In this document: piece after piece, positions 6,069-59,531 of the stretch
Position numbering within the stretch: the first letter of the stretch is position 1
Layout: each line of letters begins with the position of its first letter
Assembly: GCA_944376205.1 (NCBI GenBank)
Contig: CALWBV010000006.1
Location: forward strand, 7,868-71,867
Length of the DNA: 64,000 nucleotides
Reading direction: 5' to 3'
Origin: an uncultured Christensenellaceae bacterium
GTDB taxonomy: Bacteria; Bacillota; Clostridia; Christensenellales; UBA3700
Notes under the pieces: generated by a model
Told to the model about the DNA's origin: nothing
What the model saw: the letters and a program-made list of their open reading frames with translations, nothing else
The model's database searches: none
Program-made: the position numbers and the translations under genes

Positions 6069-6116
6069 AAAAAAACCACTCTCACGTCAATACGGAGAGT
6101 GGTCGTTTTTCTTTTT
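6069..6116 (-). terminator. Terminator-like hairpin ACCACTCTC-N11-GAGAGTGGT flanked by an A-run and a T-run
   Basis: AAAAAACCACTCTCACGTCAATACGGAGAGTGGTCGTTTTTCTTTTT. This is the first convincing terminator downstream of the 832-aa gene, about 400 nt past its stop. The same hairpin type occurs at 47162-47204 and 47333-47370. Confidence 0.55.
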
Positions 6117-6118
6117 AT

Positions 6119-6515
6119 TACCCACTGCTTGCGAACACACAATGGTTTATACTTTTTTTTCGTGTGCCCCTATACAATGGTGCTTATTTATGCTAACGCA
6201 GTGTATATTACTTTTTTTCGTGCGCCCTTGGAGAAGGGTGCAGAGTTTGCTTTTTCGAGGTCGCCCGCAAAGGCGCGTACTAGATGTACGTAACTGCCGC
6301 GGGCGCACCGCTGATAAAAGCTAAATATGTGCCATTATACAAGGGCGCCTATTTATGCGAACGCAGTGTGTATTACTTTTTTTTCGTGCGCCCTTGGAGA
6401 AGGGTGCAGAGTTTGCTTTTTCGAGGTCGCCCGCAAAGGAGCGTACTAGATGTACGTAACTGCTGCGGGCGCACCGCTGATAAAAGCTAAATATGTGCCC
6501 TTATACAAGGGCGCC
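6119..6515 (+). repeat. Tandem array of the intergenic repeat family (166-bp period: two full units, one internally deleted unit and a head fragment)
   Basis: Full units are 6217-6349 and 6383-6515. They differ at 3 positions by my alignment. Each has the head TTCGTGCGCCCTTGGAGAAGGGTG and the tail GTGCCCTTATACAAGGGCGCC. The array ends 3 nt from the stop codon at 6519-6521. Confidence 0.9.
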
Positions 6516-6518
6516 TAT

Positions 6519-9017
6519 TTATCTTTTGCGCCAGATACGATATACCTCACCGCCAGCCAACGCAATCATCTTGACAGCATTGGGAGTAATCTCGTCAACA
6601 TATACTTTGAGTTTTTTGTTGACAACCTGACCGTCTTCGATAATGAGGTAGTTTGCATTCTGTACGCCGATACCGCCTTCTCTTATGGAATCGATGGTAA
6701 CAATGTCTCCGTCGTCAAACTGTCCTACGATATCGTCGAGAGAAACAGTGGTCTTGATAAATCTCATGAACTTGTTCTCTTCGGTATATACGTCAGCAAG
6801 CTGTTCTGCAAGTTCGTCGGGAAGCTGCTCTGCCTGTTCGAGAGTTATGGAATCTCTGACAAGATAGCCGTAACCTTTTCTTTCTGCAAGAGTCATTCCT
6901 TCGGGAGAGAGTTCCTCTGTAAAGTCTTTCTCTTTATATCTGGGCTTTTTCTCGAGGGCACAAGCTTCTGCAGTCTTTGCGATGAGTTCTTTTGCCTTCT
7001 TTACTGCGAGTTTGGATCTTACAGGCATGAGCGTAGGAATTTCGACAACACCTCTCTTTTCGCTCATATCCTTGTGGTGATAGTACTTCTCATCGAGAGA
7101 TGCGGGATCGAGTGCAAGGTAGAGTTTGAGAGTCTTGCCGTTGATGACTATTCTCGCCTTGGTCTCACGACTGTGATTGAAGTTTTCCTTGGTCTTGCTG
7201 ATTCTGTTTCTGAATCCGTAAGAAAGGAGTTCGTTTTTGAGTTCTGAATAGAATTTCTTGAGGTCGTCGCTTGCAAGTCTCAATTTCGTCATAAAGGTGA
7301 ATCTGGGTCTTACACTCTTGATTGCACTGATATCCTCTTCTTCCTCGTCTTCCTCATCGTCATCCTCGTCGTCTTCTTCTTTTTGCTGATTCATAAGAGC
7401 TACGATGTTGGTCTCGATATTTGCAAGTCTTTCGTTGATTTCGTCGTCGTTTCTGTTGTCCTCTACGGGCACGTAAACTGTCTGAACGATAGGCTGTTGT
7501 TGTACGGGTTCCTCAACGGGTTCGTCGACAGGTTCCTCAACAGGTTCTTCTACAGGCTCCTCGACAGGCTCGACAACTTCTTCGACTGGTTCTTCCACAG
7601 GCTCGTCAACAGGCTCCTCTATCACTTCTGCTACAGGTTCCTCAACGGGCTCTTCGACGGGTTCCTCTACAGGCTCCTCAATAGGTTCGTCAACAGGTTC
7701 CTCGATAGGCTCTTCGATATGAACTTCTTCTTGAGGTTCTTCGATTTCCTGTTGTTCCTCGGCTGCGAAAACGGGCTTGGATATAACTACGTGCGCTCTC
7801 GTATCTCTCTTGTAGATAGACATCTTGAGCGTGTACTGACAGAGTATCAACCACAATACGCCTATGATTCCGCACGCTATGGCGATATACATATACATGT
7901 AAATTTTGCCGGTAAAATAGTACAACAGCGTGCCTATCGCACCGATTATGAATATGTAAGGCATACAGTCAACAAGGTTTGCTCTGCCTCTTACGAGTCT
8001 TATGAACAAAGATACTACCATCATTACGATTGCGGCAGCCGCAAAAACGAACGTTACGACTACTTCGAGATCGGTTGCGATAAATTCGAAATTCTCAAGC
8101 ATAGGAGATTGCGTAATGATGAATATTATCATGATACCTACGAGTGCAAGCATTACGATAAATGCAGCGTACTTGGTAAATACTACCTTGAAGTACATAA
8201 GAAGCTTGTTGCTGGCACTGTAAACCGCATCGTTTGCCTTCTCTTGTATTCTTACTTTGAATATGGCAATTCTTATCGTCATGAGCACGAGCATTATTCC
8301 CGTAAGCGCAAGCGTCATGATAGCAAGTTCGTTGATAGGCGAGAAGTGTTTGAGAATGACGCATTGCAAAATCATTCCGAAACATACCAACAGTCCTATC
8401 AGCAAGAATGCGTCAAGCGAACAAACTTTCTGACTGCGCATCGTGATAAACGCCCATACGACAAGTGCCGCGCCCATTATCGATACGAGAACGATCATAG
8501 GCACTTTGTGTTCCTGGAAGAAAGAAATACCTGCGCCGTCTGCGATGTCTGCCGCAAAGAATACTACGTAAAGCAAACATGTAATAGGCAAAAACGTGAT
8601 AGGATTGTAGAATTTGAGCAACGAACCGAAGTAAAACGCAACTTTGTTACGCTTTTTCTTCTTGCTGTCGTCTTCCTCTTCTTCTTTTACCTCGTGGCTG
8701 TCGTAAGTCTCATAACGGAGTTCACCGCCGGGACCGTAAGGAAGCTCGTTTTCTTCTTCCTTTTCGGGTTCGTCGATAAAGCCTACGACGGCTTTTTTCT
8801 TCTTACCCTTTTTGCCCTTTGCCTCGGCAAAAGTATCGACGCTCTTTTTCTTCTTTTTGGACTTGTCCTTTTTACCTTCGGCCTGTACTCTGACAATAGT
8901 AGTCTGTTCGGGTTGAGGTTGTGCAACCTCCTCCTTAACTTCGGCTACATTCTCGGGTACTGCCGCAGTATCTAAAGTCTGGTCTGTGTTTTCTGCTTTT
9001 TTCTTGGCTTTTTTCAT
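6519..9017 (-). CDS. Large hypothetical membrane protein: Lys-rich N-terminus, about 8-10 TM helices, (P-V/I-E-E)n acidic repeat, globular C-terminal domain
   Basis: 832-aa ORF. Contains EEPVEEPVEEPVEEPV repeats and the acidic run EEDDEDDDEEDEEEED. The C-terminal roughly 70 aa (VSLDDIVGQFDDGDIVT...KKLKVYVDEITPNAVKMIALAGGEVYRI) resemble the C-terminal module of ribosomal protein uL15. Confidence 0.75.
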   Translation of the reverse strand: MKKAKKKAENTDQTLDTAAVPENVAEVKEEVAQPQPEQTTIVRVQAEGKKDKSKKKKKSVDTFAEAKGKKGKKKKAVVGFIDEPEKEEENELPYGPGGELRYETYDSHEVKEEEEDDSKKKKRNKVAFYFGSLLKFYNPITFLPITCLLYVVFFAADIADGAGISFFQEHKVPMIVLVSIMGAALVVWAFITMRSQKVCSLDAFLLIGLLVCFGMILQCVILKHFSPINELAIMTLALTGIMLVLMTIRIAIFKVRIQEKANDAVYSASNKLLMYFKVVFTKYAAFIVMLALVGIMIIFIITQSPMLENFEFIATDLEVVVTFVFAAAAIVMMVVSLFIRLVRGRANLVDCMPYIFIIGAIGTLLYYFTGKIYMYMYIAIACGIIGVLWLILCQYTLKMSIYKRDTRAHVVISKPVFAAEEQQEIEEPQEEVHIEEPIEEPVDEPIEEPVEEPVEEPVEEPVAEVIEEPVDEPVEEPVEEVVEPVEEPVEEPVEEPVDEPVEEPVQQQPIVQTVYVPVEDNRNDDEINERLANIETNIVALMNQQKEEDDEDDDEEDEEEEDISAIKSVRPRFTFMTKLRLASDDLKKFYSELKNELLSYGFRNRISKTKENFNHSRETKARIVINGKTLKLYLALDPASLDEKYYHHKDMSEKRGVVEIPTLMPVRSKLAVKKAKELIAKTAEACALEKKPRYKEKDFTEELSPEGMTLAERKGYGYLVRDSITLEQAEQLPDELAEQLADVYTEENKFMRFIKTTVSLDDIVGQFDDGDIVTIDSIREGGIGVQNANYLIIEDGQVVNKKLKVYVDEITPNAVKMIALAGGEVYRIWRKR
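7506..7717 (-). repeat. In-frame 12-nt-period coding repeat (PVEE/PIEE units)
   Basis: The plus strand shows repeated GGTTCCTCNACNGG / GGCTCCTCNACAGG units, which translate on the minus strand as EEPVEEPVDEPIEEP. Confidence 0.85.
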
Positions 9018-24016: not shown

Positions 24017-25366
24017 ATGTACTCAAGCAACGAAATTATAGAAACTATAAATATGATATCCCAACAGCACCTCGACGTACGTACGATTACGCTCGGGATA
24101 TCCCTTTTGGACTGTATTACGGACAGTAAAAAACGTACTGCCGATAAGATCTACGATAAGATCATGTCCAAAGCCAAAAATCTCGTCAAAATCGGCAACG
24201 ACATCTCTAGCGAAATAGGCGTGCCTATCGTCAACAAACGTATATCAGTTACGCCCGTAAGCCTCGTCGCAGCCGCCAGCAAAGGACATCTCGAAATTAT
24301 CCGTACTCTCGACAAGATAGCCGACGAAACGGGTATAGACTTTTTGGGCGGCTACTCCGCTCTCGTACATAAGGCAATGACGCCCTATGAAAAAGAATTT
24401 ATACTCTCCATTCCCGAAGCGCTTTCGACGACGGGTAAAATCTGTTCGTCCGTCAACGTCGCAACTTCAAAAGCAGGCATAAATATGGACGCCGTCGCTC
24501 TCATGGGTAAAATCGTCAAGGACTGCGCTTACCGCACAAAAGACAACGATTCCCTCGCTTGCGCAAAACTCGTCGTATTCGCAAACGCCGTAGAGGATAA
24601 CCCCTTCATGGCAGGCGCTTTCCTCGGTACGGGTGAAGACGATACCGTCGTCAACGTAGGCGTATCCGGTCCCGGCGTGGTAAAAACAGCTCTCGAAAAA
24701 GTCGACGGAGACCTCACTGAAGTCGCAGAATGCATCAAACAGACAGCATTCAAAATCACCCGTGTAGGTCAGCTCGTCGCAAAAGAGGCAAGCAAACGTC
24801 TTAATGCAAGTTTCGGTATTGTCGACCTCTCCCTTGCTCCCACTCCCGTAGTAGGCGACAGCGTGGCTCACATACTCGAAGAAATAGGTCTCGAAAGCGT
24901 TGGCGCTTGCGGTACTACCGCTTGTCTCGCCATGCTCAACGACGCCGTCAAAAAAGGCGGTATCATGGCTTGTAGCAGCGTAGGCGGATTGTCTGGCGCA
25001 TTTATACCCGTATCGGAAGACGCAGGCATGATAAGAGCTGCCGAAACAGGTGCGCTCAATATCGAAAAACTCGAAGCCATGACTGCCGTATGCTCGGTCG
25101 GTCTGGATATGATAGCTATACCGGGAGATACTCCCGCAGAAGTTATCTCGGGAATTATTGCAGACGAAATCGCTATCGGCGTGGTAAATACCAAGACGAC
25201 TGCCGTAAGAGTTATTCCCGTATACGGCAAGAAAGCGGGCGAATATGCAGAATTCGGCGGACTTTTGGGACGTGCTCCTATCATGAACGTAAATACCAAT
25301 TCTCCTCTGAAATTCATATCGAGAGGCGGAAGGATTCCGGCGCCTTTGCACAGCAACAAAAACTAA
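24017..25366 (+). CDS. UPF0210 / DUF711 (PFL4669-type) protein
   Basis: 449 aa. The N-terminus [27 protein letters not shown] is typical of UPF0210. Confidence 0.85.
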
Positions 25367-25369: not shown

Positions 25370-25613
25370 TGCGAACGCATATAGCGGCGCATATTTGCGA
25401 TTTTGCGCAAGCAGTTGCGCTCGGTTACGTACGCCTAGTACGCTCCGCTCGCGAACTCTCTTCAAAACCGCAACTCTACACCACTCTCCGCGCTCGCACG
25501 AAGTGGGTAATATAATGACGCTTGCGCACTTACGTATATACAATATGCGCCTTTACGGGCGACCTTGAAAAAGCCAACTCTACATCCTTCTCCAAGGTCG
25601 CACGAAGTGGGTA
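25370..25613 (-). repeat. Intergenic repeat family, two units read tail-to-head on the plus strand
   Basis: ...GTTACGTACGCCTAGTACGCTCCGCTCGCGAACTCTCTTCAAAACCGCAACTCTACACCACTCTCCGCGCTCGCACGAAGTGGGT, then ...GGGCGACCTTGAAAAAGCCAACTCTACATCCTTCTCCAAGGTCGCACGAAGTGGGT. It begins right after the UPF0210 stop. Confidence 0.85.
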
Positions 25614-25700
25614 AAAAATTCAAAAGCCCTATTGCAAATCAATGTATGCAGCTGCATTATTGACAAGCGAGGTGCACGACTTATACACGAAGCAACTTTT

Positions 25701-25739
25701 AATTTATACAATTTAAGCCTTAAGTAAATTGTATAAATT
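25701..25739. repeat. 39-nt AT-rich perfect hairpin (copy 1 of 3)
   Basis: AATTTATACAATTTA-AGCCTTAAG-TAAATTGTATAAATT. 15-bp arms and a 9-nt loop. Confidence 0.9.
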
Positions 25740-25761
25740 ATTTTATATAAGAAATATATAT

Positions 25762-26114
25762 AGGAAGCCAAGCCATTGGAGAGTGCTGTGATTTTGTGAA
25801 TTTTCAGCGGTTGTCCCAATCATAAGCGTAACTAATACGTGCTTGTATACAAACAATAGAAAGTAACTCTAAATCTAAAAAGGAAGAGCCGTCGGAGATT
25901 GGTGCGATTTTTGCTTTTCTAAGACCGAGTGCGACAGGAGCGTACTTGTCAGAAAAGACACACTAATATAAAAATATAAAGGAAGTAAAGCCCTTGGAGA
26001 TTGGTGCAGAGTTGCGGTTTTGAAGAGAGTTCACGAGGGAGCGTACTTCTAGTACGTGACCGAGCGTAACTACTCGCACAAAACCGCAAATATGTGCCGA
26101 TATACAAGGGCGCA
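25762..26114 (+). repeat. Intergenic repeat family, three units (two degenerate) read head-to-tail on the plus strand
   Basis: The heads are CCATTGGAGAGTGCTGTG, CGTCGGAGATTGGTGCG and CCCTTGGAGATTGGTGCAGAG. The last unit ends ...AAATATGTGCCGATATACAAGGGCGC, 8 nt before the rlmB ATG. Confidence 0.75.
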
Positions 26115-26121: not shown

Positions 26122-26847
26122 ATGAAAATAGAAGGAAGAAACCCCCTAACCGAAGCCCTCGATTCTGACATCAAAATATCGAGGATCTACGTATCGAAGA
26201 CTGCACACGATTTGCAGCCTTTGATTGACAAGGCAAAAAACAAAAAGATCCGCATAGACTTTGTGGACAGAGCTTTCCTGGACAAAATGAGCGAAAGCAA
26301 ACGCCATCAAGGAATTATCGCTGTGAGCGAAGAATACAGCTACGCAACTATTGAAGACATTCAGCAAGTCGCAAAACAAAAGGGCGAAAAACTCTTTGTG
26401 CTTATTCTCGATTCTATCGAAGACCCTCACAATCTCGGCAGTATCATAAGAGTAGCTGAATGCGCAGGCGCACACGGTATTATCATACCTTCACGCAGAA
26501 GCGCAAGCGTAAACGCTACCGTTTTGCGCACCTCGGCAGGCGCAGCTAACCATATAAAAGTCGCTATGGTCGGCAATATCAACGACGCTATCCGACAGCT
26601 CAAGGACGACTTCGTCAATGTCTATTGCGCCGATATGCAAGGCACTACCCTGTACGACTGCCGTTTTGACGAAGACGTGGCAATCGTCATAGGCAACGAG
26701 GGCGACGGCGTAAAAGCACTTACCGCCAAACTCTGCAATCACGTGGTATCTATACCCCAATTCGGCAAAGTAAATTCACTCAATGCGTCGGTGGCTTGCG
26801 GGATTATTTGTTATGAAGTCATCCGTCAAAGGCGCAACCTTGTATAA
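26122..26847 (+). CDS. rlmB: 23S rRNA (guanosine-2'-O)-methyltransferase RlmB (SpoU/TrmH family)
   Basis: MKIEGRNPLTEAL..., DPHNLGSIIR, IGNEGDGV and SLNASVACGIICYE motifs. The upstream extension of the ORF to 26056 lies in repeat sequence and is rejected. Confidence 0.9.
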   Translation: MKIEGRNPLTEALDSDIKISRIYVSKTAHDLQPLIDKAKNKKIRIDFVDRAFLDKMSESKRHQGIIAVSEEYSYATIEDIQQVAKQKGEKLFVLILDSIEDPHNLGSIIRVAECAGAHGIIIPSRRSASVNATVLRTSAGAANHIKVAMVGNINDAIRQLKDDFVNVYCADMQGTTLYDCRFDEDVAIVIGNEGDGVKALTAKLCNHVVSIPQFGKVNSLNASVACGIICYEVIRQRRNLV

Positions 26848-27180
26848 GGGCGTGCCTTTGACTTTTTCTGCGACACTTCTGCTTAGTCACGTACGGCTAG
26901 TACGCTCCTTTCGCAGTCGGTCTGGAAAAAATAAAAATCACACTCTTCTCCAAGGTCGCATGAAGTAAACGATATAGCTGTGCGCTTTTGCGTGTGACCT
27001 AGAAAAAGAAAAATCACCCCGCTCTCTGTACTTGCGAAATACTTATAAAAAATTAGGTCGCATAAAGCAAACGATATAGCTGTGTGCTTTTGTGTGTGAC
27101 CTAGAAAAAGAAAAAATCACACCACTCTCCGCACTTGCAAGAAGTACAAAACGCACACTCTTCTCCACGGTCGTATAGTT
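26831..27180 (-). repeat. Intergenic repeat family, one full and about three partial units
   Basis: GGCGCAACCTTGTATAAGGGCGTGCC...AGTCACGTACGGCTAGTACGCTCCTTTCGCAGTCGGTCTGGAAAAAATAAAAATCACACTCTTCTCCAAGGTCGCATGAAGT, followed by partial units. The terminal palindrome contains the rlmB stop codon (26845-26847). Confidence 0.85.
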
Positions 27181-27316
27181 AATGTAATATCGACGGCTTA
27201 TGCAAGATAAAAAATAAATACTTAAAAACAAAAGTCGGCTGATGCCGACTATTATTTGCTTTGTAGTGTTTGTCTGTAAAGCTGAATATGCGAAAAATGC
27301 ACTTTGCAAACAATAA

Positions 27317-32106: not shown

Positions 32107-32243
32107 AAGTCGCCGTTGTATATCAGCGTATCTTTTCCTTTTGTCTGCGACGCTCGCCCTCAGTCACGTACGATAAGTACGCTCCTTTCGCGCTCGGTCT
32201 TGAAAAAGAAAAATCTGCACTAATCTCCAACGGCTCCACATTT
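32107..32243 (-). repeat. Intergenic repeat family, one unit abutting the RBS of the FGGY kinase gene
   Basis: AGTCGCCGTTGTATATCAGCG...CTCAGTCACGTACGATAAGTACGCTCCTTTCGCGCTCGGTCTTGAAAAAGAAAAATCTGCACTAATCTCCAACGGCTCC. Confidence 0.8.
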
Positions 32244-32394
32244 CTGTGTGAGTATTAAATTTTTCAATTTTTTGAAGTCCGTAATTATATCGGCTTCGGG
32301 TTTATGTGTTTTTCGTTTTATCAATTACGATATCCGCATCAAAGGGATTATCTCATATCAGAAAGATAGAATCTCCGTCATGATTTTGAGGAGC

Positions 32395-32433
32395 AATTTA
32401 TACAATTTAAGTCTTGGATAAATTGTATAAATT
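32395..32433. repeat. 39-nt AT-rich perfect hairpin (copy 2 of 3)
   Basis: AATTTATACAATTTA-AGTCTTGGA-TAAATTGTATAAATT. Confidence 0.9.
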
Positions 32434-32547
32434 ATCTTCTTATGCGTACACGTATATGTGCGCAAAATAAGTAAAACAAAATCAATATTATCCCCTTTTG
32501 CTCCGCCATTGGAACACTAGGCTGTGAATAATATTGAAATATCTTCA

Positions 32548-42093: not shown

Positions 42094-44355
42094 TCAACTT
42101 ACAATACCTGCCGTCTCCGCACCGCCGCCGGTATCCTGTCCTGACGATGGTTGTTTTTCCTCTCCGCCCAGCGCTCCTACTATGGCATTACGTATAGGCA
42201 ATATTTTATCTTCGCCTATCATGTCGGCAAGCATATCGCATGCTTTATCCACGCCGTATATCAGAACTTCGTTGATAGTTTGCGCTCCGACTTCCGCCTT
42301 TGCCTGTTGGGCAAGGAAATAATATCCAACTCCGAGTGCCGCAACTAAAATTATTGTAAGTATCAACCACATAACGACAATACTTCTTATAAGCGCTGTC
42401 CTTGACTTGTTGCCCACGCCGAAAAACCAGCATATGCACGCAAATAAGTTAATAAGCGGTATTGCAAGAACTATAATAGTGCCTATCCATTTGCCTACCG
42501 TCATCGGATAGTTGCGCAAATCCATTTCGTCAAAACGCGACGCTTTTTTTGCTATCTTGCGCTGTTTTCTCGTCATGTTTTCTTTTTCAGGCAACGTAAC
42601 GACTACCGTCTGTCTGTCGCTGCTGACAAATCTAGGGACAAAAGGCTGCTCGGAATTATCATTCGACGCTTGTGTTTTGTCCTGCGAAGCGTTGACCGCC
42701 GTCTGTGCTACCGCACCGCCGTAAACGGCATTCACAAAGTCTCCGCCGAGCATATCCGTCTCCTCGGGAATAGCTTTGCGCTCCTCTTTGTATTCTGTCA
42801 TATCGACAAAACCGTCTGCTTCGTTTGTCTCTGCGTTTTTCGACTTTTTGTTCTTTTTGTCGAGTTTTGCCTGTTCTTTATCGGCAAGCGCCTGCTTTTT
42901 CTTATCGAGTTTGTCTTGCTTTGCCTGCTCTTTTTGATTCTGCTTTTCAAACTTGGCTTGCGCCTTATCCTGCTTGGCTTGCTCTTTGGCATTAAGCTTA
43001 TCTTGCTTTGCCTGTTCCTTGGCTTGCTTGTCTGCCGCCTTCTTTTCTTCTGCTTCTTTTATCTTTTGCTGCTTTAAGTCGGCAAGCTCTTGTTTTTGTC
43101 TCTCTTTCTCGTCAAGCTGCGCTTGTTTGTCGGCAAGTTTTTGTTGTTTTTCCTGCTCTTTGGCATTCAACTTGTCTTGCTTTGCCTGTTCTTTTTGATT
43201 GAGCTTGTCTTGTTTTGCTTGCTCTTTAAGCTGTCTCTCCTGTTCTTTTTTGAGCAAAGCGTCGTGTTTTTGCTGTCTTTTGATCTCGTCTTTTGTCAAA
43301 GGTATCTGTTGAGGCGCTTCGTTTGCGTTGAAATCGTATTCGTTTCCGCCCTGCAATTGTCCGTATTGGGGCACGCCGTAATTATCCTGTGCGCCTGAAT
43401 AAGCGTAATTCTGCGCACCGTAGTTGTCGTATGCGTTAGCGCCTGCATAGCCGTCCGAAGCTTGGGTATAACGGGGTCTCGCTTCCTGCTCGGGTTGAGC
43501 GTATCCGCCGTATTGTGCAGGCTGGCTGTATTGAGGTCTCGCTTCCTGCTTGGGTTGAGCGTATCCGCCGAATTGCGCAGGCTGGCTGTATTGAGGTCTC
43601 ACTTCCTGCTTGGGTTGAGCGTATCCGCCGAATTGCGCAGACTGACTGTATTGAGGTCTTGCCTCCTGCTCGGGTTGAGCGTATCCGCCGTATTGTGCAG
43701 GCTGACTGTATTGAGGTCTTGCCTCCTGCTCGGGTTGAGCGTATCCGCCGTATTGTGCAGGCTGACTGTATTGAGATGCGATATTCTGTTGTGTTTGATT
43801 GGGTTGAGTATAGGGAGACTGCACAGACTGTCTGTCTCCGTTAAAAGGTCTGTCTCCCGATAAAGCCTTATTGTCGGGTTGAGAATTTGTTCTGTCGGCT
43901 ACCGGCTTATTGAAAGCATAATTGCCCGTTTGTGCAGGACGAGGTTTCTGCTCCTTCTGATGAGCAGATTTTGCAAACCCGAACGAACTCGTTCCGAGAT
44001 ACTTCTTCTCGTTTGACGAGGCAGGTTTTTCTGTAGACTGATGCTTGGGAAATTTTTGTTTGGACGGAATAGGATTGTTGTGACTTGCGGGTTGCTGCTC
44101 GTTGAGTCCCGAAAGCGCATTGGCAAAACTGTTGCCGAAATTGTTAGAATACGTATTATCCACATATGCGGGAGCGTAGTCGTCCTCTCTTTCTTCCTTT
44201 TGCGGTATGCCGTACTCATCCGCAGCCCATACCGATTTAGGAGTAGACGACTGCCATTGAGATGCGTTATCCTGCTGTGCAGATTTATCCGCTTTACCGT
44301 CAAAGCCGCCCTGATATGCCTTATAATCCTTGTCGTTGTCGTTGTTGTTGAACAT
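42094..44355 (-). CDS. Large hypothetical protein: Gln/Pro/Tyr-rich 20-aa repeats, Lys/Gln/Glu coiled-coil-like repeats, C-terminal TM domain
   Basis: Start at the ATG 5 nt after GAGGGG (MFNNNDND). It has five RPQYSQPAQ(Y/F)GGYAQP(E/K)QE(A/V) units. A long (A/E)KQDKLN(A/Q)KEQ run follows. At least three TM helices lie near the C-terminus. Confidence 0.75.
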   Translation of the reverse strand: MFNNNDNDKDYKAYQGGFDGKADKSAQQDNASQWQSSTPKSVWAADEYGIPQKEEREDDYAPAYVDNTYSNNFGNSFANALSGLNEQQPASHNNPIPSKQKFPKHQSTEKPASSNEKKYLGTSSFGFAKSAHQKEQKPRPAQTGNYAFNKPVADRTNSQPDNKALSGDRPFNGDRQSVQSPYTQPNQTQQNIASQYSQPAQYGGYAQPEQEARPQYSQPAQYGGYAQPEQEARPQYSQSAQFGGYAQPKQEVRPQYSQPAQFGGYAQPKQEARPQYSQPAQYGGYAQPEQEARPRYTQASDGYAGANAYDNYGAQNYAYSGAQDNYGVPQYGQLQGGNEYDFNANEAPQQIPLTKDEIKRQQKHDALLKKEQERQLKEQAKQDKLNQKEQAKQDKLNAKEQEKQQKLADKQAQLDEKERQKQELADLKQQKIKEAEEKKAADKQAKEQAKQDKLNAKEQAKQDKAQAKFEKQNQKEQAKQDKLDKKKQALADKEQAKLDKKNKKSKNAETNEADGFVDMTEYKEERKAIPEETDMLGGDFVNAVYGGAVAQTAVNASQDKTQASNDNSEQPFVPRFVSSDRQTVVVTLPEKENMTRKQRKIAKKASRFDEMDLRNYPMTVGKWIGTIIVLAIPLINLFACICWFFGVGNKSRTALIRSIVVMWLILTIILVAALGVGYYFLAQQAKAEVGAQTINEVLIYGVDKACDMLADMIGEDKILPIRNAIVGALGGEEKQPSSGQDTGGGAETAGIVS
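43473..43775 (-). repeat. Five tandem 60-bp near-identical coding repeats
   Basis: Plus-strand unit: GTATTGAGGTCTCGCTTCCTGCTYGGGTTGAGCGTATCCGCCGWATTGYGCAGGCTGRCT, repeated 5 times in phase. Confidence 0.9.
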
Positions 44356-44705
44356 CTTTCCCCTCAATTTGTCCTTAAGGACCTGTAAAATAAACTTTCA
44401 CTTTCACACACAATACGTCTTTTGTCAGGCAATTGCACTCCGTAATGCAAAATATCCGCCTAACGACGCATTATGATTTTACTACAAATATGAATATCTG
44501 TCAATTAAAGTCAATGAGAGGTTTTGAAGGATTTTTTTGCCATATATGACATTTATGCGCCTTTTCCCGAAGAAAAAAGCGCATATCGTCCATAAAAAAT
44601 TCAACATTTTCATATTTTGCGCATGCTGTAAAAACACACATGCCGCCCCGCCCGAGTTGAGCTTGCTATATTGCCGCAAAATTCTTAAGCGTAATCGTCT
44701 AAAAT

Positions 44706-46057: not shown

Positions 46058-47011
46058 ATGCCACTCGTAACATCTAAAGAAATGTTCAAAAAAGCATACG
46101 CAGGCAAATACGCTATCGGTGCTTTTAACGTAAACAATATGGAAATCATCCAAGGTATCGTCGAAGCCGCTACCGAAGAAAACGCTCCTCTTATTTTGCA
46201 AGTTTCTTCCGGCGCTCGTAAATACGCTAACCCCGTATATCTCCGTAAAATGGTTGAAGCTGCAGAAGAAGTAAGCCACTTGCCTATCTGCTTGCACCTC
46301 GACCACGGCGATACTTTCGAACTCTGCAAAAGCTGTATCGACGGCGGTTTTAACTCCGTAATGATCGACGGCAGCCACCACTCTTTCAAGGATAACATCG
46401 CTCTTACCAAGCAGGTCGTTGAATACGCTCACGATCACGGCGTTACCGTAGAAGGCGAACTCGGACGTCTCGCAGGCGTTGAGGACGACGTTAAGGTTTC
46501 CGCAGAGGACAGCTCCTATACCCGCCCCGAAGAAGTAGAAGAATTCGTTACAAAGACGGGCGTTGACTCCCTCGCTATCGCTATCGGTACTTCCCACGGC
46601 GCTTACAAGTTCAAGCCCGGTACGAAGCCCCAACTCCGTTTCGATATCCTCGAAGAAGTAAGCAAGAGACTTCCTGAATTCCCTATCGTATTGCACGGCG
46701 CTTCTTCCGTACCTCAAGAATTCGTAAAGATCATCAACGAGAACGGCGGAAAGCTTCAGGATGCTATCGGCGTACCCGAAGATATGTTGCGTAAGGCTGC
46801 AAGCATGGCAGTATGTAAGATCAACATCGACTCCGACCTCAGAATGGCTTGCACCGCAGGTATCCGTAAGCACTTTATGGAGCATCCCGATCACTTCGAT
46901 CCCAGACAATACCTCGGCGACGCTAGAGCTAACATCAAGTATATCGTAAAGCATAAGCTCGTAAACGTACTCGGTTGTGCTGGTAAGGCTGACGAGATTC
47001 TCGGTAAATAA
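46058..47011 (+). CDS. fba: Class II fructose-1,6-bisphosphate aldolase
   Basis: YAIGAFNVNNMEIIQGIVEAA, LHLDHG and AIAIGTSHGAYKF motifs. Confidence 0.95.
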   Translation: MPLVTSKEMFKKAYAGKYAIGAFNVNNMEIIQGIVEAATEENAPLILQVSSGARKYANPVYLRKMVEAAEEVSHLPICLHLDHGDTFELCKSCIDGGFNSVMIDGSHHSFKDNIALTKQVVEYAHDHGVTVEGELGRLAGVEDDVKVSAEDSSYTRPEEVEEFVTKTGVDSLAIAIGTSHGAYKFKPGTKPQLRFDILEEVSKRLPEFPIVLHGASSVPQEFVKIINENGGKLQDAIGVPEDMLRKAASMAVCKINIDSDLRMACTAGIRKHFMEHPDHFDPRQYLGDARANIKYIVKHKLVNVLGCAGKADEILGK

Positions 47012-47161
47012 TAGGCGACCTTGTATAAGGGCGCACCTTTTCCTTTTATCTTCGACGCTCCTACTCAGTCACGTACGGCAAGTACGCTCCTATCGTAGTC
47101 GGTCTTGAAAAAGAAAAATTCACACTCTTCTCCAAGGTCGCACGAAATGGGGCAATAAAAG

Positions 47162-47204
47162 AAAAAACGACCACTCTCTGCAATAGCACGAGAGTGGTTT
47201 TTTC
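47162..47204 (+). terminator. Hairpin terminator GACCACTCTC-N11-GAGAGTGGT plus T-run
   Basis: AAAAAACGACCACTCTCTGCAATAGCACGAGAGTGGTTTTTTC. This is the likely fba terminator, lying after the first repeat unit. Confidence 0.7.
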
Positions 47205-47332
47205 ACCTTTCTTTATGCAAGAGTTGCCTCTCTCGGTTAAATAAGATATTATGCGCCTTTGCGGGTGACCTCGAAAAAGAAAAAACTGCACTAATCTCTG
47301 CGGTTGCACAGAGTTTGCAATAACCAAAAACT

Positions 47333-47370
47333 AAAACCACTCTCCTTACTAATGTGAGAGTGGTTTTTTT
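47333..47370 (+). terminator. Second hairpin terminator of the same type
   Basis: AAAACCACTCTCCTTACTAATGTGAGAGTGGTTTTTTT. Confidence 0.65.
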
Positions 47371-47583
47371 ATAGAATAATATTTAATTATTGTAGATAAT
47401 AAAATACAAGTCAGTTTTACTATGCCGTCAATATCCGTTTTCTTCCTTATTCTACTTATCATCGACATAGTCTATCTATGCCTTGAGCGCAAGTATCTTA
47501 AAAAAGTAAACGCAGAAAATGTAATTAGCGAAAAAGAAAATCTCAAAACTGACTGACTATATTATTATACTTAAATATTAAAA

Positions 47584-47622
47584 CAATTTATACAATTTAA
47601 GTCTTGGGTAAATTGTATAAAT
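47584..47622. repeat. 39-nt AT-rich perfect hairpin (copy 3 of 3)
   Basis: AATTTATACAATTTA-AGTCTTGGG-TAAATTGTATAAATT. Confidence 0.9.
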
Positions 47623-47748
47623 TAGCTTTTCCCCTTACGCACGTATGTACATGCAAAAAGCCGCTTAAAATGCGGCTGATAAATTTCATATATTTTTATA
47701 TTACGCCCTCTGTATAATTCTCATAAAGGACAATCTTTTTATTATATT

Positions 47749-48233
47749 ACCGACTCCGTGCGACCTTGGAGAAGAGTGTGAATTTTTCTTTTTCAAGACC
47801 GACTACGACAGGATAGCATATAATACAATATCCGCTTGGAAAAAAGTACCGACAAACGGTTTTATTCGCTTGTTGAATATATACCGTTTCGTTTGGTCGG
47901 TATGGACAAACCCGACATTTTGTCTTACGCTTTCGACACCTCGGAAGCGTAGGTATTTTGTCGTGGTGAGCGAACCGTGACCGAGCGTAACTGCTTAAAA
48001 AAATTCGCAAAGGCGCACCACCATATTACCCACTTCGTGCGACCTTGGAGAAGGGTGTGATTTTGCAAATTATAGAAATTTATCAATTTAATATTACTCA
48101 CTCCTTGCAAGTGCGGAGAGTGGTGCAGAGTTTGTCTTTTCAAGACCGAGTGCGACAGGCGCATACTTTGCGTATGTAACTGAGCGCGAGCGTCGCAGAC
48201 AAAGGCAAAATATGCGCCGCTATACGCACTTGC
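47749..48233 (+). repeat. Intergenic repeat family, about three units read head-to-tail, ending at the stop codon of the 245-aa gene
   Basis: CCGTGCGACCTTGGAGAAGAGTGTGAATTTTTCTTTTTCAAGACCGACTACGACAGG..., then CACTTCGTGCGACCTTGGAGAAGGGTGTG..., then CTCCTTGCAAGTGCGGAGAGTGGTGCAGAGTTTGTCTTTTCAAGACCGAGTGCGACAGGCGCATACTTTGCGTATGTAACTGAGCG... Confidence 0.85.
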
Positions 48234-48971
48234 CTATTTGAAGAAGTCAACAATCTTCTGTTTAATAACCTGCAACTTCCCTTCTATAAACTGTTTGATT
48301 TCACTCTTCTTGGTCTTTTTGAATTCGTCACGCAGTTTGTCGATAAGTTCCTTTTGAATGACCCGATTATTAGCAAATATCTGCTCGGTATTGCCCTTAA
48401 TTTCTATATAGCTTTCTGCGACAAGTTCGCAATAGGCGAGGATGCCCTGCTGAATTTCCGCATCGTACATGCCTTTTTCGAGACTAGCAAAAGCGCACAG
48501 AAGTTCGACGATATTGTCGCTTACCTTGTCATAGAAGTTCTTGCCCGAAATATACTCGGCAATCGCCATATATGCGGCGGTGTCACGGGTGTATTCCTTG
48601 CAAAAGTCTCTGATACATTCCTCAACTTTGGCAAACATGTCTTCGTCGAGCGAAAATACGTTGTCCCAAGTGATTTTCTCAACAACCGTTGCGCCTGAAG
48701 AATAGAGTTTTTTGTTGACAAGTTCGAGAATGTCGGCTTCGCCTGCGACTCCGCTTAAAAACTGGATTTCTTTGGGATAAAGATTGTGATTGGCTTTGCT
48801 CTGGAAAAAGAGTATGGCCTGCAATATCCTGTCAAACATGCGTATGCGATTCTGCGTACTCAAATTGGGATCGACGTTGCGTGCGATATCGCATATCTCG
48901 ACGAGATACTTTGTGATCGCAGAATAGCGCTTATAAAGTTTGAGCCAGATTTTTTCTTTAGCTACTGCCAT
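48234..48971 (-). CDS. Hypothetical all-alpha protein
   Basis: 245-aa ORF with coding-like composition and a GGAG RBS (GGAGGAGTTATG on the minus strand). No family recognised. Confidence 0.6.
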   Translation of the reverse strand: MAVAKEKIWLKLYKRYSAITKYLVEICDIARNVDPNLSTQNRIRMFDRILQAILFFQSKANHNLYPKEIQFLSGVAGEADILELVNKKLYSSGATVVEKITWDNVFSLDEDMFAKVEECIRDFCKEYTRDTAAYMAIAEYISGKNFYDKVSDNIVELLCAFASLEKGMYDAEIQQGILAYCELVAESYIEIKGNTEQIFANNRVIQKELIDKLRDEFKKTKKSEIKQFIEGKLQVIKQKIVDFFK

Positions 48972-55419: not shown

Positions 55420-55960
55420 ACAATATCCGCTTGTCTTTGTAGGCAAGTCGGTAAGAATAACAAAATAAATTATAGTGCTGTCGGCTTGTAAAAAATTCAG
55501 CTGCGTACTGGGAATTTTTCGAAGATTTGTTCGTACCGCTATTCAACGGCGCAGATAAGATTTGAGAGGCACATCTTATGTCTGTTATTTTGTTGAGGCG
55601 CTTGACAATACGGCAAGTATTGCCGTCGCACCTCGCCGCATAACAGACGCAATCTGCACTTCTCAAATTGCAAGCCCCGTATAATACGGCTTATCCTTGC
55701 CGTTTCGTATCGGTAGTTGAGAAGGAAGAAGTAATACTTGCTGTATTACGATGACAACGAAACAAAAAACATAAAGCTTTAATGAATAAATCCGATTGCC
55801 TTTGTAGGCAAGTCGGTAAGAATAACAAAATAAATTATAGTGCTGTCGGCTTGTAAAAAATTCAGCTGCGGGCAGAGAATTTTTCGAATATTTTTGTTGA
55901 GAAGGACGAAGTAATACTGGATGTATTTCGAGGACGACGAAACAAAAAGACCGGAAAAGG
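55420..55960 (+). repeat. Direct duplication (365-bp offset) in the region upstream of the GH27 gene
   Basis: A module of about 105 nt, ...TTTGTAGGCAAGTCGGTAAGAATAACAAAATAAATTATAGTGCTGTCGGCTTGTAAAAAATTCAGCTGCG..GAATTTTTCGAA, occurs at about 55426-55530 and about 55791-55895. A second module, GTTGAGAAGGA(A/C)GAAGTAATACT...ACGAAACAAAAA, occurs at about 55706-55770 and about 55895-55950. Confidence 0.85.
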
Positions 55961-57633: not shown

Positions 57634-57667
57634 TCTATAGCTTAAGAAAAGAGAAATTACCGACAAA

Positions 57668-57696
57668 AAGGCTTGCAAAAACGCAAGCCTTTTTTG
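57668..57696 (+). terminator. Rho-independent terminator after the GH27 gene
   Basis: AAGGCTTGCAAAAACGCAAGCCTT followed by TTTTT. Confidence 0.85.
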
Positions 57697-57787
57697 ATTT
57701 TATATAAACTGCCACAAGAAATATCAATGGCTGTTTTTCCCTTACCTTTCCTCGCAGAGAATAAATATGCCCCGCAATAATACATAC

Positions 57788-58277
57788 TTCTTGCAAGCAC
57801 AGAATAGTTGCAGAATAGCGACTTTGAAGAGAGTTCGTGAGCGGAGCTTACTAGACAAAATCGCAAATATGCACCGCTACATTAACAACTTCGTGCGACC
57901 TTGGAGAAGGGGGCGATTTTTTCTTTTTCAAGACCGACTACGACAGGAGCGTACTTGCCGTACGTGACTGAGTAGGAGCGTCGAAGATAAAAGGAAAAGG
58001 CGTGCCACTAAATTACCAACTTTGTGCAAGCACGGAGAGTGGTGTGATTTTGCGAATTTTAAGAGAGTTCGCGAGCGGAGCATACTTTGCGTATGTAACT
58101 GAGCGCAAGCGTCGCAGATAAAGGCAAAAGATGTACTTACCCACTTCGTGCGACCTTGGAGAAAGGTGTAGAGTTGGCTTTTTCAAGGTCGCCCGTAAAG
58201 GAGCGTACTAGACGTACGTGACTGCAGCGGGCGTACCGCTGACAAAAGTCAAATATGCGCCCTTATACAAGGTCGCC
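57788..58277 (+). repeat. Intergenic repeat family, four tandem units alternating two head subtypes and ending at the gdh stop codon
   Basis: The heads are TTCTTGCAAGCACAGAATAGTTG (subtype 2), AACTTCGTGCGACCTTGGAGAAGGGGG (subtype 1), AACTTTGTGCAAGCACGGAGAGTGGTG (subtype 2) and CACTTCGTGCGACCTTGGAGAAAGGTG (subtype 1). The last unit ends ...AAATATGCGCCCTTATACAAGGTCGCC at 58277. Confidence 0.9.
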
Positions 58278-59531
58278 TTAAGGGAAGAGACCACGCTTCC
58301 TCTTCGCAGTACAAATCCTCTCGATAGCAACGGCGTAAGCCGCAATACGGTAACTCAATTTATGCTCTTTTGCTTTGTTGTAGACATCGTCGAACGCACG
58401 GGACATAACTTTGTAGAGAGTATTGTTGACGTCGTTTTCGTCCCAGGTCAGCGACTGGAGATTCTGCACCCATTCGCAATAAGAAACTACTACGCCGCCG
58501 GCATTGGAAAGAACGTCGGGAAGCACCGTAATATTGCGCTCGGCAAGTATCTTATCCGCATCGACCGTCGTGGGACCGTTGGCGGCTTCGATGACTATTT
58601 TACACTTCAAGTCGGAAGCTATCTCCGCCGTGATCTGATTTTCGAGTGCTGCGGGAATAAGTATGTCGCAAGGCGCTGTAAGCACTTCTCTGTTGGTGAC
58701 GTGACGAGCGTCATTATCGGTATAATCTTTCAAAAGATTTTTAGCTTTTACAAACTTGTATATCTTGGGTATGTCGAGTCCGTCGGGATTATACAGTCCG
58801 CCCGATACATCGGCAACCGCTACGATTTTGCAACCTTTTTGATAGAGCAGTTTCGCTGCCGTCGAGCCTACGTTTCCCATACCCTGTATGCTTATCTTCA
58901 CATCCTTTGGAGAGATGTTGTTTTTCTCGAGCATTTTGAGCGTAACTATCATTATGCCTCTGCCCGTCGCCTCGGGTCTTCCAAGCGAGCCGCCTACTTC
59001 GAGGGACTTGCCCGTAACGACTCCGTGCACGGTGTATCCTCTCGTCATCGAATAGGTATCCATTATCCAATCCATGACCTGTGCATTGGTGCCTACGTCG
59101 GGTGCAGGTATATCCTTTTCCGGTCCGAGAATAGGAAAAATCATTGCGGTATAACGTCTTGTAAGCCTTTCGAGTTCGCTCACGGACAGCGTCGAAGGAT
59201 TGACCTTGATTGCGCCCTTGGCTCCGCCGTAAGGAATATTGACGACGGCACACTTAAAACTCATCCATGCGGCAAGCGCCTTGACTTCGTCAATGTTGAC
59301 GTCCTGATGATATCTTATACCGCCCTTGCAAGGACCTCTCGATGTGCTGTGTTGCACTCTGTACCCTTCAAAAACTCTTATCGAACCGTCGTCCATTCTG
59401 ATAGGTACGCTGACTTTGAGTTCTCTCTCGGGATACTTGATAAGCACGTAGTCTTCTTCACGCATGCCTATGGATTTTGCGGCTTGATCGAGTACCGCAA
59501 GAAAGTTGTCATAGGGATTGTACTTTGCCAT
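58278..59531 (-). CDS. gdh: Glutamate dehydrogenase (Glu/Leu/Phe/Val dehydrogenase family)
   Basis: CKGGIRYHQDVNIDEVKALAAWMSFKCAVVNIPYGGAKGAI (catalytic Lys region) and the Rossmann motif IQGMGNVG. Confidence 0.93.
   Translation of the reverse strand: MAKYNPYDNFLAVLDQAAKSIGMREEDYVLIKYPERELKVSVPIRMDDGSIRVFEGYRVQHSTSRGPCKGGIRYHQDVNIDEVKALAAWMSFKCAVVNIPYGGAKGAIKVNPSTLSVSELERLTRRYTAMIFPILGPEKDIPAPDVGTNAQVMDWIMDTYSMTRGYTVHGVVTGKSLEVGGSLGRPEATGRGIMIVTLKMLEKNNISPKDVKISIQGMGNVGSTAAKLLYQKGCKIVAVADVSGGLYNPDGLDIPKIYKFVKAKNLLKDYTDNDARHVTNREVLTAPCDILIPAALENQITAEIASDLKCKIVIEAANGPTTVDADKILAERNITVLPDVLSNAGGVVVSYCEWVQNLQSLTWDENDVNNTLYKVMSRAFDDVYNKAKEHKLSYRIAAYAVAIERICTAKRKRGLFP

Follow-up and report, generated by a model that had tools for sequence, protein, structure and literature searches.

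ERIC is a 127-bp MITE that is co-transcribed and has an orientation-dependent RNase E effect (PMC2229807, PMC10969869, PMC1590033). Reviews state that its orientation matters (PMC2229807), place it in the Enterobacteriaceae and Vibrionaceae (PMC10969869) and treat it as an enterobacterial and vibrio peculiarity. Correia/NEMIS and similar MITEs are likewise co-transcribed, and their RNAs fold into long hairpins open to cleavage by ribonucleases (PMC2229807, PMC10969869). In the literature searched, no description of ERIC-like elements outside the Gammaproteobacteria was found. ERIC repeats have been in use for strain typing for 35 years, their insertion is reported to duplicate the dinucleotide TA, and De Gregorio et al. 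2005 reportedly described an orientation rule for them in Yersinia. REP/BIME sequences can stabilise the upstream mRNA. The attC site is an imperfect hairpin of 60-140 nt located directly 3' of an ORF, with a conserved structure, a free sequence and a folding strand that is antisense.

The window, which is the whole 64-kb stretch of DNA analysed here, comes from an uncultured, Christensenellaceae-like gut bacterium of the Clostridia, a host outside this reviewed range of ERIC (PMC10969869). It carries a genuine, abundant and structured family of intergenic repeats adjoining genes, whose members appear to be distant relatives of enterobacterial ERIC repeats within a family of many phyla. An nhmmer profile built from the window's own full-length units scores 20 non-overlapping units or fragments, totalling 2,068 nt, with matches on both strands and at all eight loci named in the earlier note; its count of about 20 units in both orientations was therefore right. 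The extent of 2.8 kb given there counted in spacers and the degenerate pieces 6119-6214, 25762-25880 and 27147-27180, which the profile leaves unscored. The shared head and tail motifs are genuine: at no more than 3 mismatches, the head motif has 9 matches and the terminal motif 11, against 0 expected from shuffles for either. Unit length ranges from 125 to 139 nt, with about 135 nt typical, and units are arranged as direct repeats within arrays.

Each unit forms a single imperfect hairpin, rod-shaped and about 135 nt long, and not a series of three separate local hairpins as first described. The segment GCGACCTTG pairs with the terminal CAAGGTCGC instead of a nearby partner, and the supposed terminal palindrome consists of the 3' arms of P1 and P2, two stacked helices of the single long hairpin. 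At the base of the unit, P1 is followed by a 3x3 internal loop (GAG opposite AUA) and then by P2; the middle contains A-rich loops, which bear YCAAGRC in the 5' strand and CGMAGA in the 3' strand, succeeded by variable stems; and the tip is formed by tandem GA/GA, a G.U-closed GCGUAC/GUACGU helix and a 5-nt loop. The whole-unit rod is present in 8 of 10 folded units, with dG between -51 and -75 kcal/mol and z between -5.4 and -8.3. The two exceptions are internal units of the gdh array without the 3' arm of P1: 57885-58015 forms a shorter rod (-44.2 kcal/mol, z -4.0), and 58016-58139 has no fold that reaches significance (-32.3 kcal/mol, z -0.6). Applied to a plain MAFFT alignment, RNAalifold recovered the tip alone, because the variable stems are out of register there; the consensus structure was derived from single-sequence folds and then a covariance model. 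Across 135 elements, 69% of cells are paired, compared with 49.7% in shuffles (0 of 500 reach 69%) and 34-41% for slid partners, and double changes are seen in 48 of 52 pairs. The stems covary strongly, the tip is nearly invariant, and the loop nucleotides do not change from phylum to phylum.

Rod hairpins of equivalent build carry the tip motif GGAGCGTAC-N5-GTACGTRAC at their apex in Clostridia, Bacteroidales, Opitutales, myxobacteria and Gammaproteobacteria. The genomic stretches with this motif number at least 119 and come from many phyla; in 113 of its 132 occurrences, the motif sits on a hairpin that is 100 nt or longer and has no fewer than 35 pairs. The same cap is seen on enterobacterial copies that can be aligned with E. 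coli ERIC from end to end. The covariance model R1, trained on 65 units of which none came from the window and none was enteric, matches 11 window units at 28-53 bits (E 1e-12 to 1.5e-5) and the Citrobacter, Serratia and Klebsiella elements, which are enteric ERIC copies with a CGTAC tip, at 45-52 bits; for ERIC variants overall the scores extend down to 38 bits. Canonical E. coli ERIC is matched over its full length with a marginal 19-24.5 bits (E about 0.007-0.009 in 105 kb, 1.6e-6 in 844 nt), and a sequence-only nhmmer profile of the superfamily gives no match to it. What ties the window units to canonical ERIC is therefore the enteric intermediates together with the architecture in common. 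From end to end, the elements of Citrobacter, Serratia and Klebsiella share 69-72% identity with E. coli ERIC, and their fold is the same. A viral origin was also considered and set aside, the tip motif occurring in only 3 viral contigs.

ERIC and the window units are both single rod hairpins of 127-140 nt built from P1, a 3x3 loop and P2, and the helix and loop layout of the window units matches that of E. coli, Serratia and Citrobacter ERIC. Both tips carry a G.U-closed helix after tandem GA/GA, GCUUAC/GUAAGU in ERIC and GCGUAC/GUACGU in the window units, and both rods contain the internal loops AAGGCG (5' side) and ACGCAG (3' side). In ERIC as in the window units, the forward strand is the better-folding one of the two, and the element adjoins a convergent gene's stop codon, an arrangement that is identical for the ERIC copy at ybhI of E. 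coli; both are multi-copy and polymorphic between strains. The conserved core of ERIC (the ERIC1R/ERIC2 region) is CCCCAGGAGCTTACATAAGTAAGTGACTGGGG, and that of the window units is (A/G)GGAGCGTAC-N5-GTACGTGAC(C/T), which differs by one compensatory pair (T-A for G-C) and by a loop of 5 nt instead of 4 nt; enteric ERIC copies with the CGTAC form exist. The flanking CCCC/GGGG helix of ERIC is not conserved in the window units, which in turn differ from ERIC in their tandem arrays, half units and travelling terminator module. Since a model trained on neither group finds both, and since rod, tip, loops, stop-codon position and orientation are shared with ERIC/IRU, the first description of the family as unrecognised is not supported. 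It therefore corresponds in part to a described repeat: the covariance model and the architecture tie it to ERIC, whereas a pairwise sequence identity of 42-47% to canonical ERIC and the silent sequence-only profile hold the two apart. The only named members of the superfamily are the enterobacterial ERIC/IRU repeats.

In the window, six of the eight arrays abut the stop codon of a convergent gene and have a terminator downstream. The first comprises a tandem pair of complete units on the plus strand, a distal copy at 6215..6349 (nhmmer E 1.8e-36; R1 28.4 bits) and a copy at 6381..6515 (nhmmer 9.6e-38; 39.1 bits; fold -74.5 kcal/mol, z -8.0), the 3' base of the latter abutting the stop 6519-6521 of the convergent ORF 6519-9017(-) at a stop distance of +5. 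A terminator-like hairpin at 6070..6105, with stems CCACTCTC/GAGAGTGG, an A-run before and a T-run after, closes the 3' UTR that holds the 6215-6515 array, and its sequence is repeated at 47150-47203. At the DUF711 gene 24017-25366(+), the complete unit 25370..25506(-) (nhmmer 9.3e-36; 44.6 bits; fold -71.7 versus -43.7 for the opposite strand) abuts the stop 25364-25366. This unit is missing from the strain alleles L143 and L149. Behind it, an older unit at 25517..25610(-) is without its gene-proximal arm (nhmmer 2.4e-17, profile positions 2-98) and is complete in L149.

Around the SpoU-type methylase gene, a 5' half unit truncated at the tip (25886..25950(+); nhmmer 2.4e-13, profile positions 11-75) is followed by the complete unit 25990..26114(+) (nhmmer 7.7e-32; 53.2 bits, E 1e-12; fold -64.9, z -8.3), located 8 nt upstream of the methylase start (26123) and pointing in the direction of the gene. 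At its other end, the methylase ORF runs into the complete unit 26834..26968(-) (nhmmer 2.2e-36; 47.8 bits), with its stop 26845-26847 inside the hairpin base (stop distance -13). Two 5' half units, 26985-27034 and 27087-27146 (both minus strand; nhmmer 0.005 and 3e-7), lie distal in this array, and a terminator scan places a bidirectional terminator beyond them at 27233-27250. The complete unit 32109..32236(-) (nhmmer 3e-36; 44.8 bits) is solitary and present in every strain allele; it lies 13 nt upstream of the start (32094) of an FGGY kinase gene, assigned by Pfam, and in the same direction.

The complete unit 47013..47150(-) (nhmmer 2.3e-40; 41.3 bits) abuts the fructose-bisphosphate aldolase stop 47009-47011 and is 94% identical to 57890-58006, 10 kb away, which points to recent copying. 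It is followed by a terminator hairpin module at 47160..47203(+), again CCACTCTC/GAGAGTGG plus a T-run, by a partial unit at 47212..47314(-) (nhmmer 4.1e-12, profile positions 4-108) and by a second terminator module at 47335-47370; in strain L138 the first unit-plus-terminator module is duplicated. In the adjacent array on the plus strand, a 5' half unit at 47752..47813 (nhmmer 6.2e-14; strain comparison) is broken at its tip by a module at 47814-47975, behind which come two fragments of units, a 3' one at 47976-48026 and a 5' one at 48030-48066 (nhmmer 0.0014 and 6.4e-6, respectively). The array ends in the complete unit 48098..48234(+), which bears the tip variant GCAUAC/GUAUGU, scores 33.5 bits despite this different tip (nhmmer 3.1e-36) and abuts the stop 48234-48236 of the ORF 48234-48971(-) at a stop distance of +1.

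At gdh, the four units reported for 57788-58277 are all present on the plus strand: a degenerate distal unit at 57785..57878 (nhmmer 2.2e-6), a unit without the 3' arm of P1 at 57887..58012 (nhmmer 9.9e-33; 36.8 bits), a unit of the second head subtype with tip GCAUAC/GUAUGU and without its gene-proximal end at 58017..58134 (nhmmer 2.7e-25), and a complete unit at 58141..58278 (nhmmer 6.6e-40; fold -67.2 versus -50.6 for the opposite strand) that ends directly against the gdh stop codon 58278-58280. By alignment, the last unit is missing from strains L124, L126 and L127, which also lack part of 57785..57878, and in L124 a complete version of 58017..58134 abuts the gdh stop. The terminator scan finds a bidirectional intrinsic terminator at 57665..57694, common to the melibiase gene and the array-bearing gdh 3' UTR.

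A position at the 3' ends of genes and strong hairpins are what would be expected of ordinary transcription terminators, or of segmental duplications decaying without function, and yet this explanation is very improbable. Read in the sense of the mRNA, the hairpin is followed by an A-run or A-rich sequence and not by a U-run, and separate canonical terminators lie downstream of the arrays. Plain segmental duplications confined to the window are contradicted by units elsewhere, including the same unit type at 95% identity in a MAG labelled uncultured Christensenella sp. (L117), and by a structure that is kept through compensatory changes across phyla; the copies also occupy unrelated loci and vary between strains.

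This variation amounts to rapid gain, loss and replacement of units between strains, with presence/absence polymorphism at four loci, and includes arrays whose flanking proteins are 100% identical between strains. The gdh spacer measures 645 nt in one strain and 465 nt in another, the aldolase spacer ranges from 810 to 1432 nt with 3-9 units, the DUF711 locus is polymorphic, and a site 0-1 nt after an aminotransferase stop (TAA) is empty in one strain and filled in another. At this one site, which is compatible with either gain or loss, the TA duplication reported for ERIC is not visible, nor is a target duplication of another kind. At most units a TAA stands at each border, and the distal TAA lies inside a conserved GTAATAT, so the pair is not scorable as a duplication. 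An all-against-all BLAST of the ORFs near the 119 loci reveals no recurring transposase family: the recurrent ORFs are ABC ATPases, AraC regulators, GGDEF/EAL proteins and AspRS only. Nor was a RAYT-like gene seen near the elements.

The position at stop codons extends across phyla. Of 125 full elements, 88 have a nearby stop that belongs to a convergent ORF of 100 aa or more, and in 63 of those 88 (63/125 overall) the distance between hairpin base and stop falls in the range -13 to +12 nt. The strands of the element are unequal: the forward strand is the more stable in 108 of 113 elements, by a median of 15 kcal/mol, and is purine-rich in 124 of 125, with a GC skew of +0.16. Cells with G.U number 557 and those with A.C 318, G.U being in excess in 98 sequences and A.C in 18. 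Beside protein genes, the better-folding strand is antisense to the mRNA in 77 cases versus 23, and the 3'-UTR transcript may therefore not be what selection acts on.

Such a strand preference, together with the excess of G.U and the invariant loops between covarying stems, would suit a forward-strand RNA module with tandem sheared G.A pairs, a G.U-closed tip and purine-rich loops, bound by a widely conserved protein or RNase. It would be either an antisense transcript that runs into gene 3' ends or a part of precursor rRNA, with the copies acting as RNA genes or modules and not as selfish DNA. In one myxobacterium and several Gammaproteobacteria, elements do occur in the transcribed orientation, either in the spacers of rRNA operons or following tRNAs, and in the window 25990-26114 and 32109-32236 are sense-oriented just upstream of start codons. 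Against this, most copies are antisense to the flanking operon, between stop codon and terminator. Consensus promoter scans give no consistent promoter upstream of the units, and the 5' flank is not conserved across families. The copy number per locus varies by strain and many copies are halves, which is unusual for an RNA gene. Nor does any Rfam family match: Rfam 15 yields 0 matches at the gathering score in the window, nothing below E=1 at 57700-58400 and no family overlapping the elements in 18 other loci, so that the reported lack of an Rfam match stands at the gathering score as well as at permissive E-values. Overall, this RNA module is an unlikely explanation.

The same strand specificity could instead mark a fold of single-stranded DNA, the tip of which is recognised by a structure-specific recombinase, a transposase or a reverse-transcription step, as in integron attC bottom strands or IS200/IS605 ends, and which would place units at stop codons in a fixed orientation. 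A recognition-like invariant tip beside free stems, an orientation fixed relative to the gene with an exact stop-codon position, and breaks that often fall exactly at the unit tip are consistent with this proposal, as is, by analogy, the location of attC at the 3' end of cassette ORFs with an antisense folding strand. The complete unit is always gene-proximal, which is consistent with polar addition; selection retaining the proximal unit explains this polarity equally well, and the polymorphic sites give no direction of change. In detail the units depart from attC, which conserves its base (R and L boxes), varies at its tip and occurs once per cassette beside an integrase, whereas the units conserve the tip, flank housekeeping genes and have no integrase present. 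None of the 11 long units contains the attC R''/R' boxes (RYYYAAC...GTTRRRY) on either strand. REP/BIME sequences with RAYT resemble the units as clustered extragenic palindromes in 3' UTRs, but they are 20-40 nt long with a GTAG head and form clusters of alternating orientation, whereas the window units are 135-nt direct repeats, and GTAG is absent at every unit end. Genes for an integrase, an HUH enzyme or an RT do not recur in the neighbourhood of the elements, and the 64 kb hold units in both orientations and hence show no replication-strand bias, which also counts against a single-stranded DNA substrate. We regard such a substrate as improbable.

Correia/NEMIS of Neisseria and other bacterial MITEs (RUP, Nezha, RPE) resemble the units in size (100-160 bp), multiple copies and intergenic position. 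They have conserved terminal inverted repeats, a variable interior and a lineage-restricted distribution, whereas the units combine an invariant tip with variable termini and cross phyla. Compared with a generic MITE, the units are multi-copy, non-coding and present or absent at orthologous sites, but the terminal inverted repeats of a parent IS with a target duplication are not found, the P1 termini differing within one genome. The conservation is thus reversed relative to a classical MITE, the tip being invariant and the termini (P1 and P2) differing between copies in one genome.

On balance, the units are probably a new branch of an ERIC-type miniature non-autonomous hairpin element, belonging to a cross-phylum superfamily and carried in 3' UTRs; the MITE-like element and the 3'-UTR module proposed in the earlier note thus remain the best readings. 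The units would be co-transcribed as 3' UTR, and the strand present in the mRNA would then be the weaker, C/U-rich one. Ribosomes that terminate at the base of the hairpin would melt P1 and so couple folding to translation. The hairpins may tune 3'-end decay or processing of the upstream message, by analogy with Yersinia ERIC, which reportedly has such an effect. Arrays may grow when a complete unit is added at the stop-codon end or replaces another there, and also by unequal recombination between unit-plus-terminator modules, which would leave the older, distal units truncated. A bolder proposal, speculative and more doubtful than probable, is that ERIC is one twig of an ancient pan-bacterial element, in which a widely distributed machinery reads the invariant tip (tandem G.A pairs plus a G.U-closed GUAC helix) on one strand, antisense to the host mRNA, copies hairpins to sites directly after stop codons and extends arrays from there; such a system would represent a novel kind of mobility or a novel RNA/ssDNA-protein system, and not a MITE of the TIR-and-transposase kind.

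If the family indeed spans Clostridia, Bacteroidales, Verrucomicrobia, myxobacteria and many Gammaproteobacteria, and does so with a tip that hardly varies, stems that covary and a constant location at stop codons, a tip-recognising protein could be sought by comparative genomics through phylogenetic profiling, and the units would be candidates for a general regulator of mRNA 3' ends in gut anaerobes that may fill several per cent of intergenic DNA. Annotation pipelines, Rfam and Dfam would gain a model for a common unlabelled feature, and the mismatch between the strand that folds and the one that is transcribed would turn into a concrete question open to testing.

Near the aldolase locus, a 44-aa hydrophobic sORF at 47422-47556 was considered as a toxin and rejected, because a 28-nt deletion disrupts it in other strains. 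The module at 47814..47975(+) is a second repeat of about 160 nt and not a hairpin unit; it has no Rfam match, and nhmmer finds it at four distinct loci in the same species or close relatives, where it travels with the units and always lies beside or inside them.

The repeats that the earlier note described at eight loci of the window, in both orientations, are real. At up to three mismatches the head motif occurs nine times and the terminal motif eleven times, where shuffles expect none; a repeat finder connects all eight loci in both orientations, and a profile built from the window's own full-length units yields 20 non-overlapping units or fragments totalling 2,068 nt. Units lying 10 kb apart share 94% identity. 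At 57788-58277 the profile bears out four units, the last directly adjoining the gdh stop codon (58278-58280). The view that they belong to no named Rfam family also holds, with no match across the whole window at the gathering score and none locally at this locus at E<1. The best-supported reading is that the units form a new, Clostridia-borne branch of the ERIC-type miniature hairpin element.

Folding gives a single rod-shaped imperfect hairpin of about 135 nt per complete unit, and the three separate hairpins proposed in the earlier note are not recovered. Whole-unit rods form in eight of ten folded units (ΔG -51 to -75 kcal/mol, z -5.4 to -8.3); the two exceptions are internal units of the gdh array without the 3' arm of P1, the outermost helix. 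In P1, GCGACCTTG is paired with the terminal CAAGGTCGC, followed by an internal loop with GGAGA opposite TATAC segments; the supposed terminal palindrome corresponds to the 3' arms of P1 and of the next helix, P2. The tip is a G·U-closed GCGUAC/GUACGU helix preceded by tandem GA/GA. The sequences of P1 and P2 vary among copies yet stay complementary (for example GCGACCTTG, GCAAGTGCG, GCGAGCGCG and GCCGTTG). In 135 elements aligned to a covariance model, a fit that somewhat inflates covariation figures, standard pairs fill 69% of pair cells, a share that none of 500 shuffles attains (49.7%) and that falls to 34-41% with slid partners, double changes occur in 48 of 52 pairs, and the covariation score is 0.418 versus 0.152 shuffled. 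The hairpin structure is conserved through compensation.

The family is not local, and the search beyond the window finds it in many bacterial groups. A scan for GGAGCGTAC-N5-GTACGTRAC in one genome per species places the tip motif in at least 119 stretches, often with several matches in a single MAG. Among viral contigs the motif is almost absent. Hosts among the matches listed are Christensenellales and other Clostridia; Rikenellaceae, Alistipes, Muribaculaceae and Prevotellaceae; Opitutales; Nannocystaceae and Sandaracinaceae; Woeseiaceae, Cellvibrionaceae and Lysobacterales; and a few enterobacteria. The same unit subtype as in the window recurs at 95% identity in a MAG labelled uncultured Christensenella sp. 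(L117). Among the matches listed, 113 of 132 motif occurrences sit at the tip of a hairpin that is 100 nt or longer and has 35 or more pairs; for 108 of these 113 the GGAGCGTAC strand folds more stably than its complement (median difference 15 kcal/mol). Loop nucleotides are also conserved in the alignment (YCAAGGCG on the 5' side, GCAACGCAG on the 3' side); the stems between them vary freely.

The window tip resembles the core of ERIC. All 5,426 complete E. coli genomes contain a 44-nt ERIC core at 100% identity, in a median of nine places per genome, and a full copy was obtained from between ybhI and ybhJ. This copy lies 1 nt from the ybhI stop, in the orientation seen for the present elements. 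Motif matches from Serratia, Citrobacter and Klebsiella align with E. coli ERIC end to end at 69-72% identity with an identical fold; they are ERICs with the tip CGTAC/GTACG for CTTAC/GTAAG, a compensatory change. A covariance model of 65 elements, from which the window, its near relatives and every enteric were excluded, matches 11 window units from end to end at 28-53 bits (E 1e-12 to 1.5e-5) and the enteric variants at 38-52 bits. Canonical ERIC scores 19 bits with default filters and 24.5 bits with filters off (E about 0.007-0.009 in 105 kb, 1.6e-6 in 844 nt), in a full-length alignment that agrees at AAGGCGAC, the tip and the 3' loop. A profile of sequence alone fails to pick up canonical ERIC. 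The link is therefore marginal for direct similarity; it is good for architecture and through intermediates. Reviews up to 2024 confine ERIC to Enterobacteriaceae and Vibrionaceae (PMC10969869, PMC3184786), and no description of relatives in other phyla was found in the literature searched, whose coverage excludes many subscription papers. The interest lies in the cross-phylum superfamily and in its strand paradox.

The complementary strand folds much more weakly (for example, -67 vs -51, -55 vs -35 and -72 vs -44 kcal/mol). The forward, better-folding strand is purine-rich, with a GC skew of +0.16 that is positive in 124 of 125 elements; G·U cells number 557 versus 318 for A·C, with G·U in excess in 98 sequences and A·C in 18. 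Known mutational strand biases would produce the opposite asymmetry. With the forward strand taken as plus, a convergent downstream neighbour accounts for 77 cases and a co-oriented one for 23. By model boundaries, 88 of 125 full elements lie close to the end of a convergent ORF of 100 aa or more, and in 63 of those the stop codon lies -13 to +12 nt from the hairpin base (mode -3 to +5, often within P1). Six arrays in the window adjoin a convergent gene's stop, two units come shortly before a co-oriented start, and an intrinsic terminator follows every stop-proximal array. Ordinary genes flank the arrays and units (GDH, aldolase, DUF711, SpoU methylase, FGGY kinase, aminotransferase). We infer that the arrays are 3' UTRs, with the hairpin base at the stop codon and the weaker, C/U-rich strand in the mRNA.

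Presence/absence polymorphism at orthologous sites, raised in the earlier note, is seen at the gdh, aldolase, DUF711 and aminotransferase loci between strains whose contigs carry flanking proteins 100% identical. At gdh the spacer measures 645 nt in one form and 465 nt in the other; the shorter lacks the stop-proximal unit, has another complete unit in its place, and carries the stop TGA where the longer has TAA. Three to nine units occupy the aldolase spacer, which is 810 to 1,432 nt long, and in one allele (L138) a unit-plus-terminator module with GAGAGTGGT-TTTTT at its borders is duplicated. At DUF711, the window allele has an additional complete unit at the stop codon, and the older unit is without its gene-proximal arm. 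At the aminotransferase gene the window type has an empty stop; in other strains a unit, alone or together with a second module of about 160 nt, follows 0-1 nt after TAA. In all arrays the gene-proximal unit is complete and distal units are truncated, often exactly at the tip. On the ERIC-type reading, the elements turn over fast, through insertion, replacement and recombination.

Three facts fit a plain MITE poorly: the tip rather than the termini is invariant; the empty and filled aminotransferase stops show no target duplication, and no transposase-like family recurs across the 119 neighbourhoods among the matches listed; and the strand that folds more strongly and bears the conserved purine motifs would be absent from the mRNA. 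Because of them, two alternatives stay alive: the units may be a forward-strand RNA module, or a single-stranded-DNA substrate of a structure-specific enzyme. For an ERIC-type element, the likely effect would be translation-coupled control of mRNA 3'-end decay, by analogy with Yersinia ERIC work as summarised in PMC2229807 and PMC10969869.

Other repeats accompany the units. A perfect palindrome with 15-bp arms, AATTTATACAATTTA-[9-nt loop]-TAAATTGTATAAATT, lies beside or between arrays at three loci (25700-25744, 32394-32438, 47584-47628) with dissimilar flanks; the same loci retain it in other strains, and the DUF711/SpoU copy has its loop inverted in some, giving flip/flop isomers. The module of about 160 nt, with an internal hairpin ACCGACAAACGG...CCGTTTCGTTTGGTCGGT, a terminator-like end and no Rfam match, always adjoins or sits within a hairpin unit. 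It splits a unit at the tip in the window (47814-47975) and recurs in the compared stretches L154, L157 and L158 (515-666), L160 (357-497, 975-1125) and L117 (708-853). Terminator hairpins with stems CCACTCTC/GAGAGTGG (6070-6105, 47160-47203, 47335-47370) are themselves a repeat accompanying the units; the stem sequence GGAGAGTGG is common with the second head subtype.

Exceptions to the placement at convergent stops come from several marine Gammaproteobacteria and one myxobacterium (a Sandaracinaceae MAG), whose elements lie in transcribed orientation in rRNA-operon spacers, between tRNA-Ile, tRNA-Ala and 23S, or directly after a tRNA (L050 3388-3524; L093 2861-3000, 3450-3586; L068 1407-1544; L052 4228-4364; L095 483-618). 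The aspartyl-tRNA synthetase gene adjoins an element in six unrelated taxa (L027, L038, L057, L071, L089, L113), which may be chance or a bias toward highly expressed genes. In a Clostridia MAG, two hairpin elements in tandem have a Gut-1 RNA (RF01706, 55.6 bits; L091 5046-5115) about 160 nt away.

Within the window, a 44-aa hydrophobic sORF between two arrays (47422-47556) is probably not a gene, since a 28-nt deletion removes its start in other strains. Just upstream of the melibiase gene (55425-55948), two direct-repeat pairs (104 nt at 93% and 53 nt at 89% identity; copies about 180-365 nt apart) give no Rfam match. The minus-strand ORF 6519-9017 (832 aa) has an acidic repeat of 12-nt period at 7479-7748 and, as its sole Pfam match, ribosomal L15/L27A in the C-terminal 70 residues; an extended L15 and a mis-joined ORF are both possible readings. 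Another minus-strand ORF, 42094-44367 (757 aa), contains tandem repeats of 60-nt period and lysine/glutamine-rich-looking direct repeats (43396-43798 and 42891-43248).
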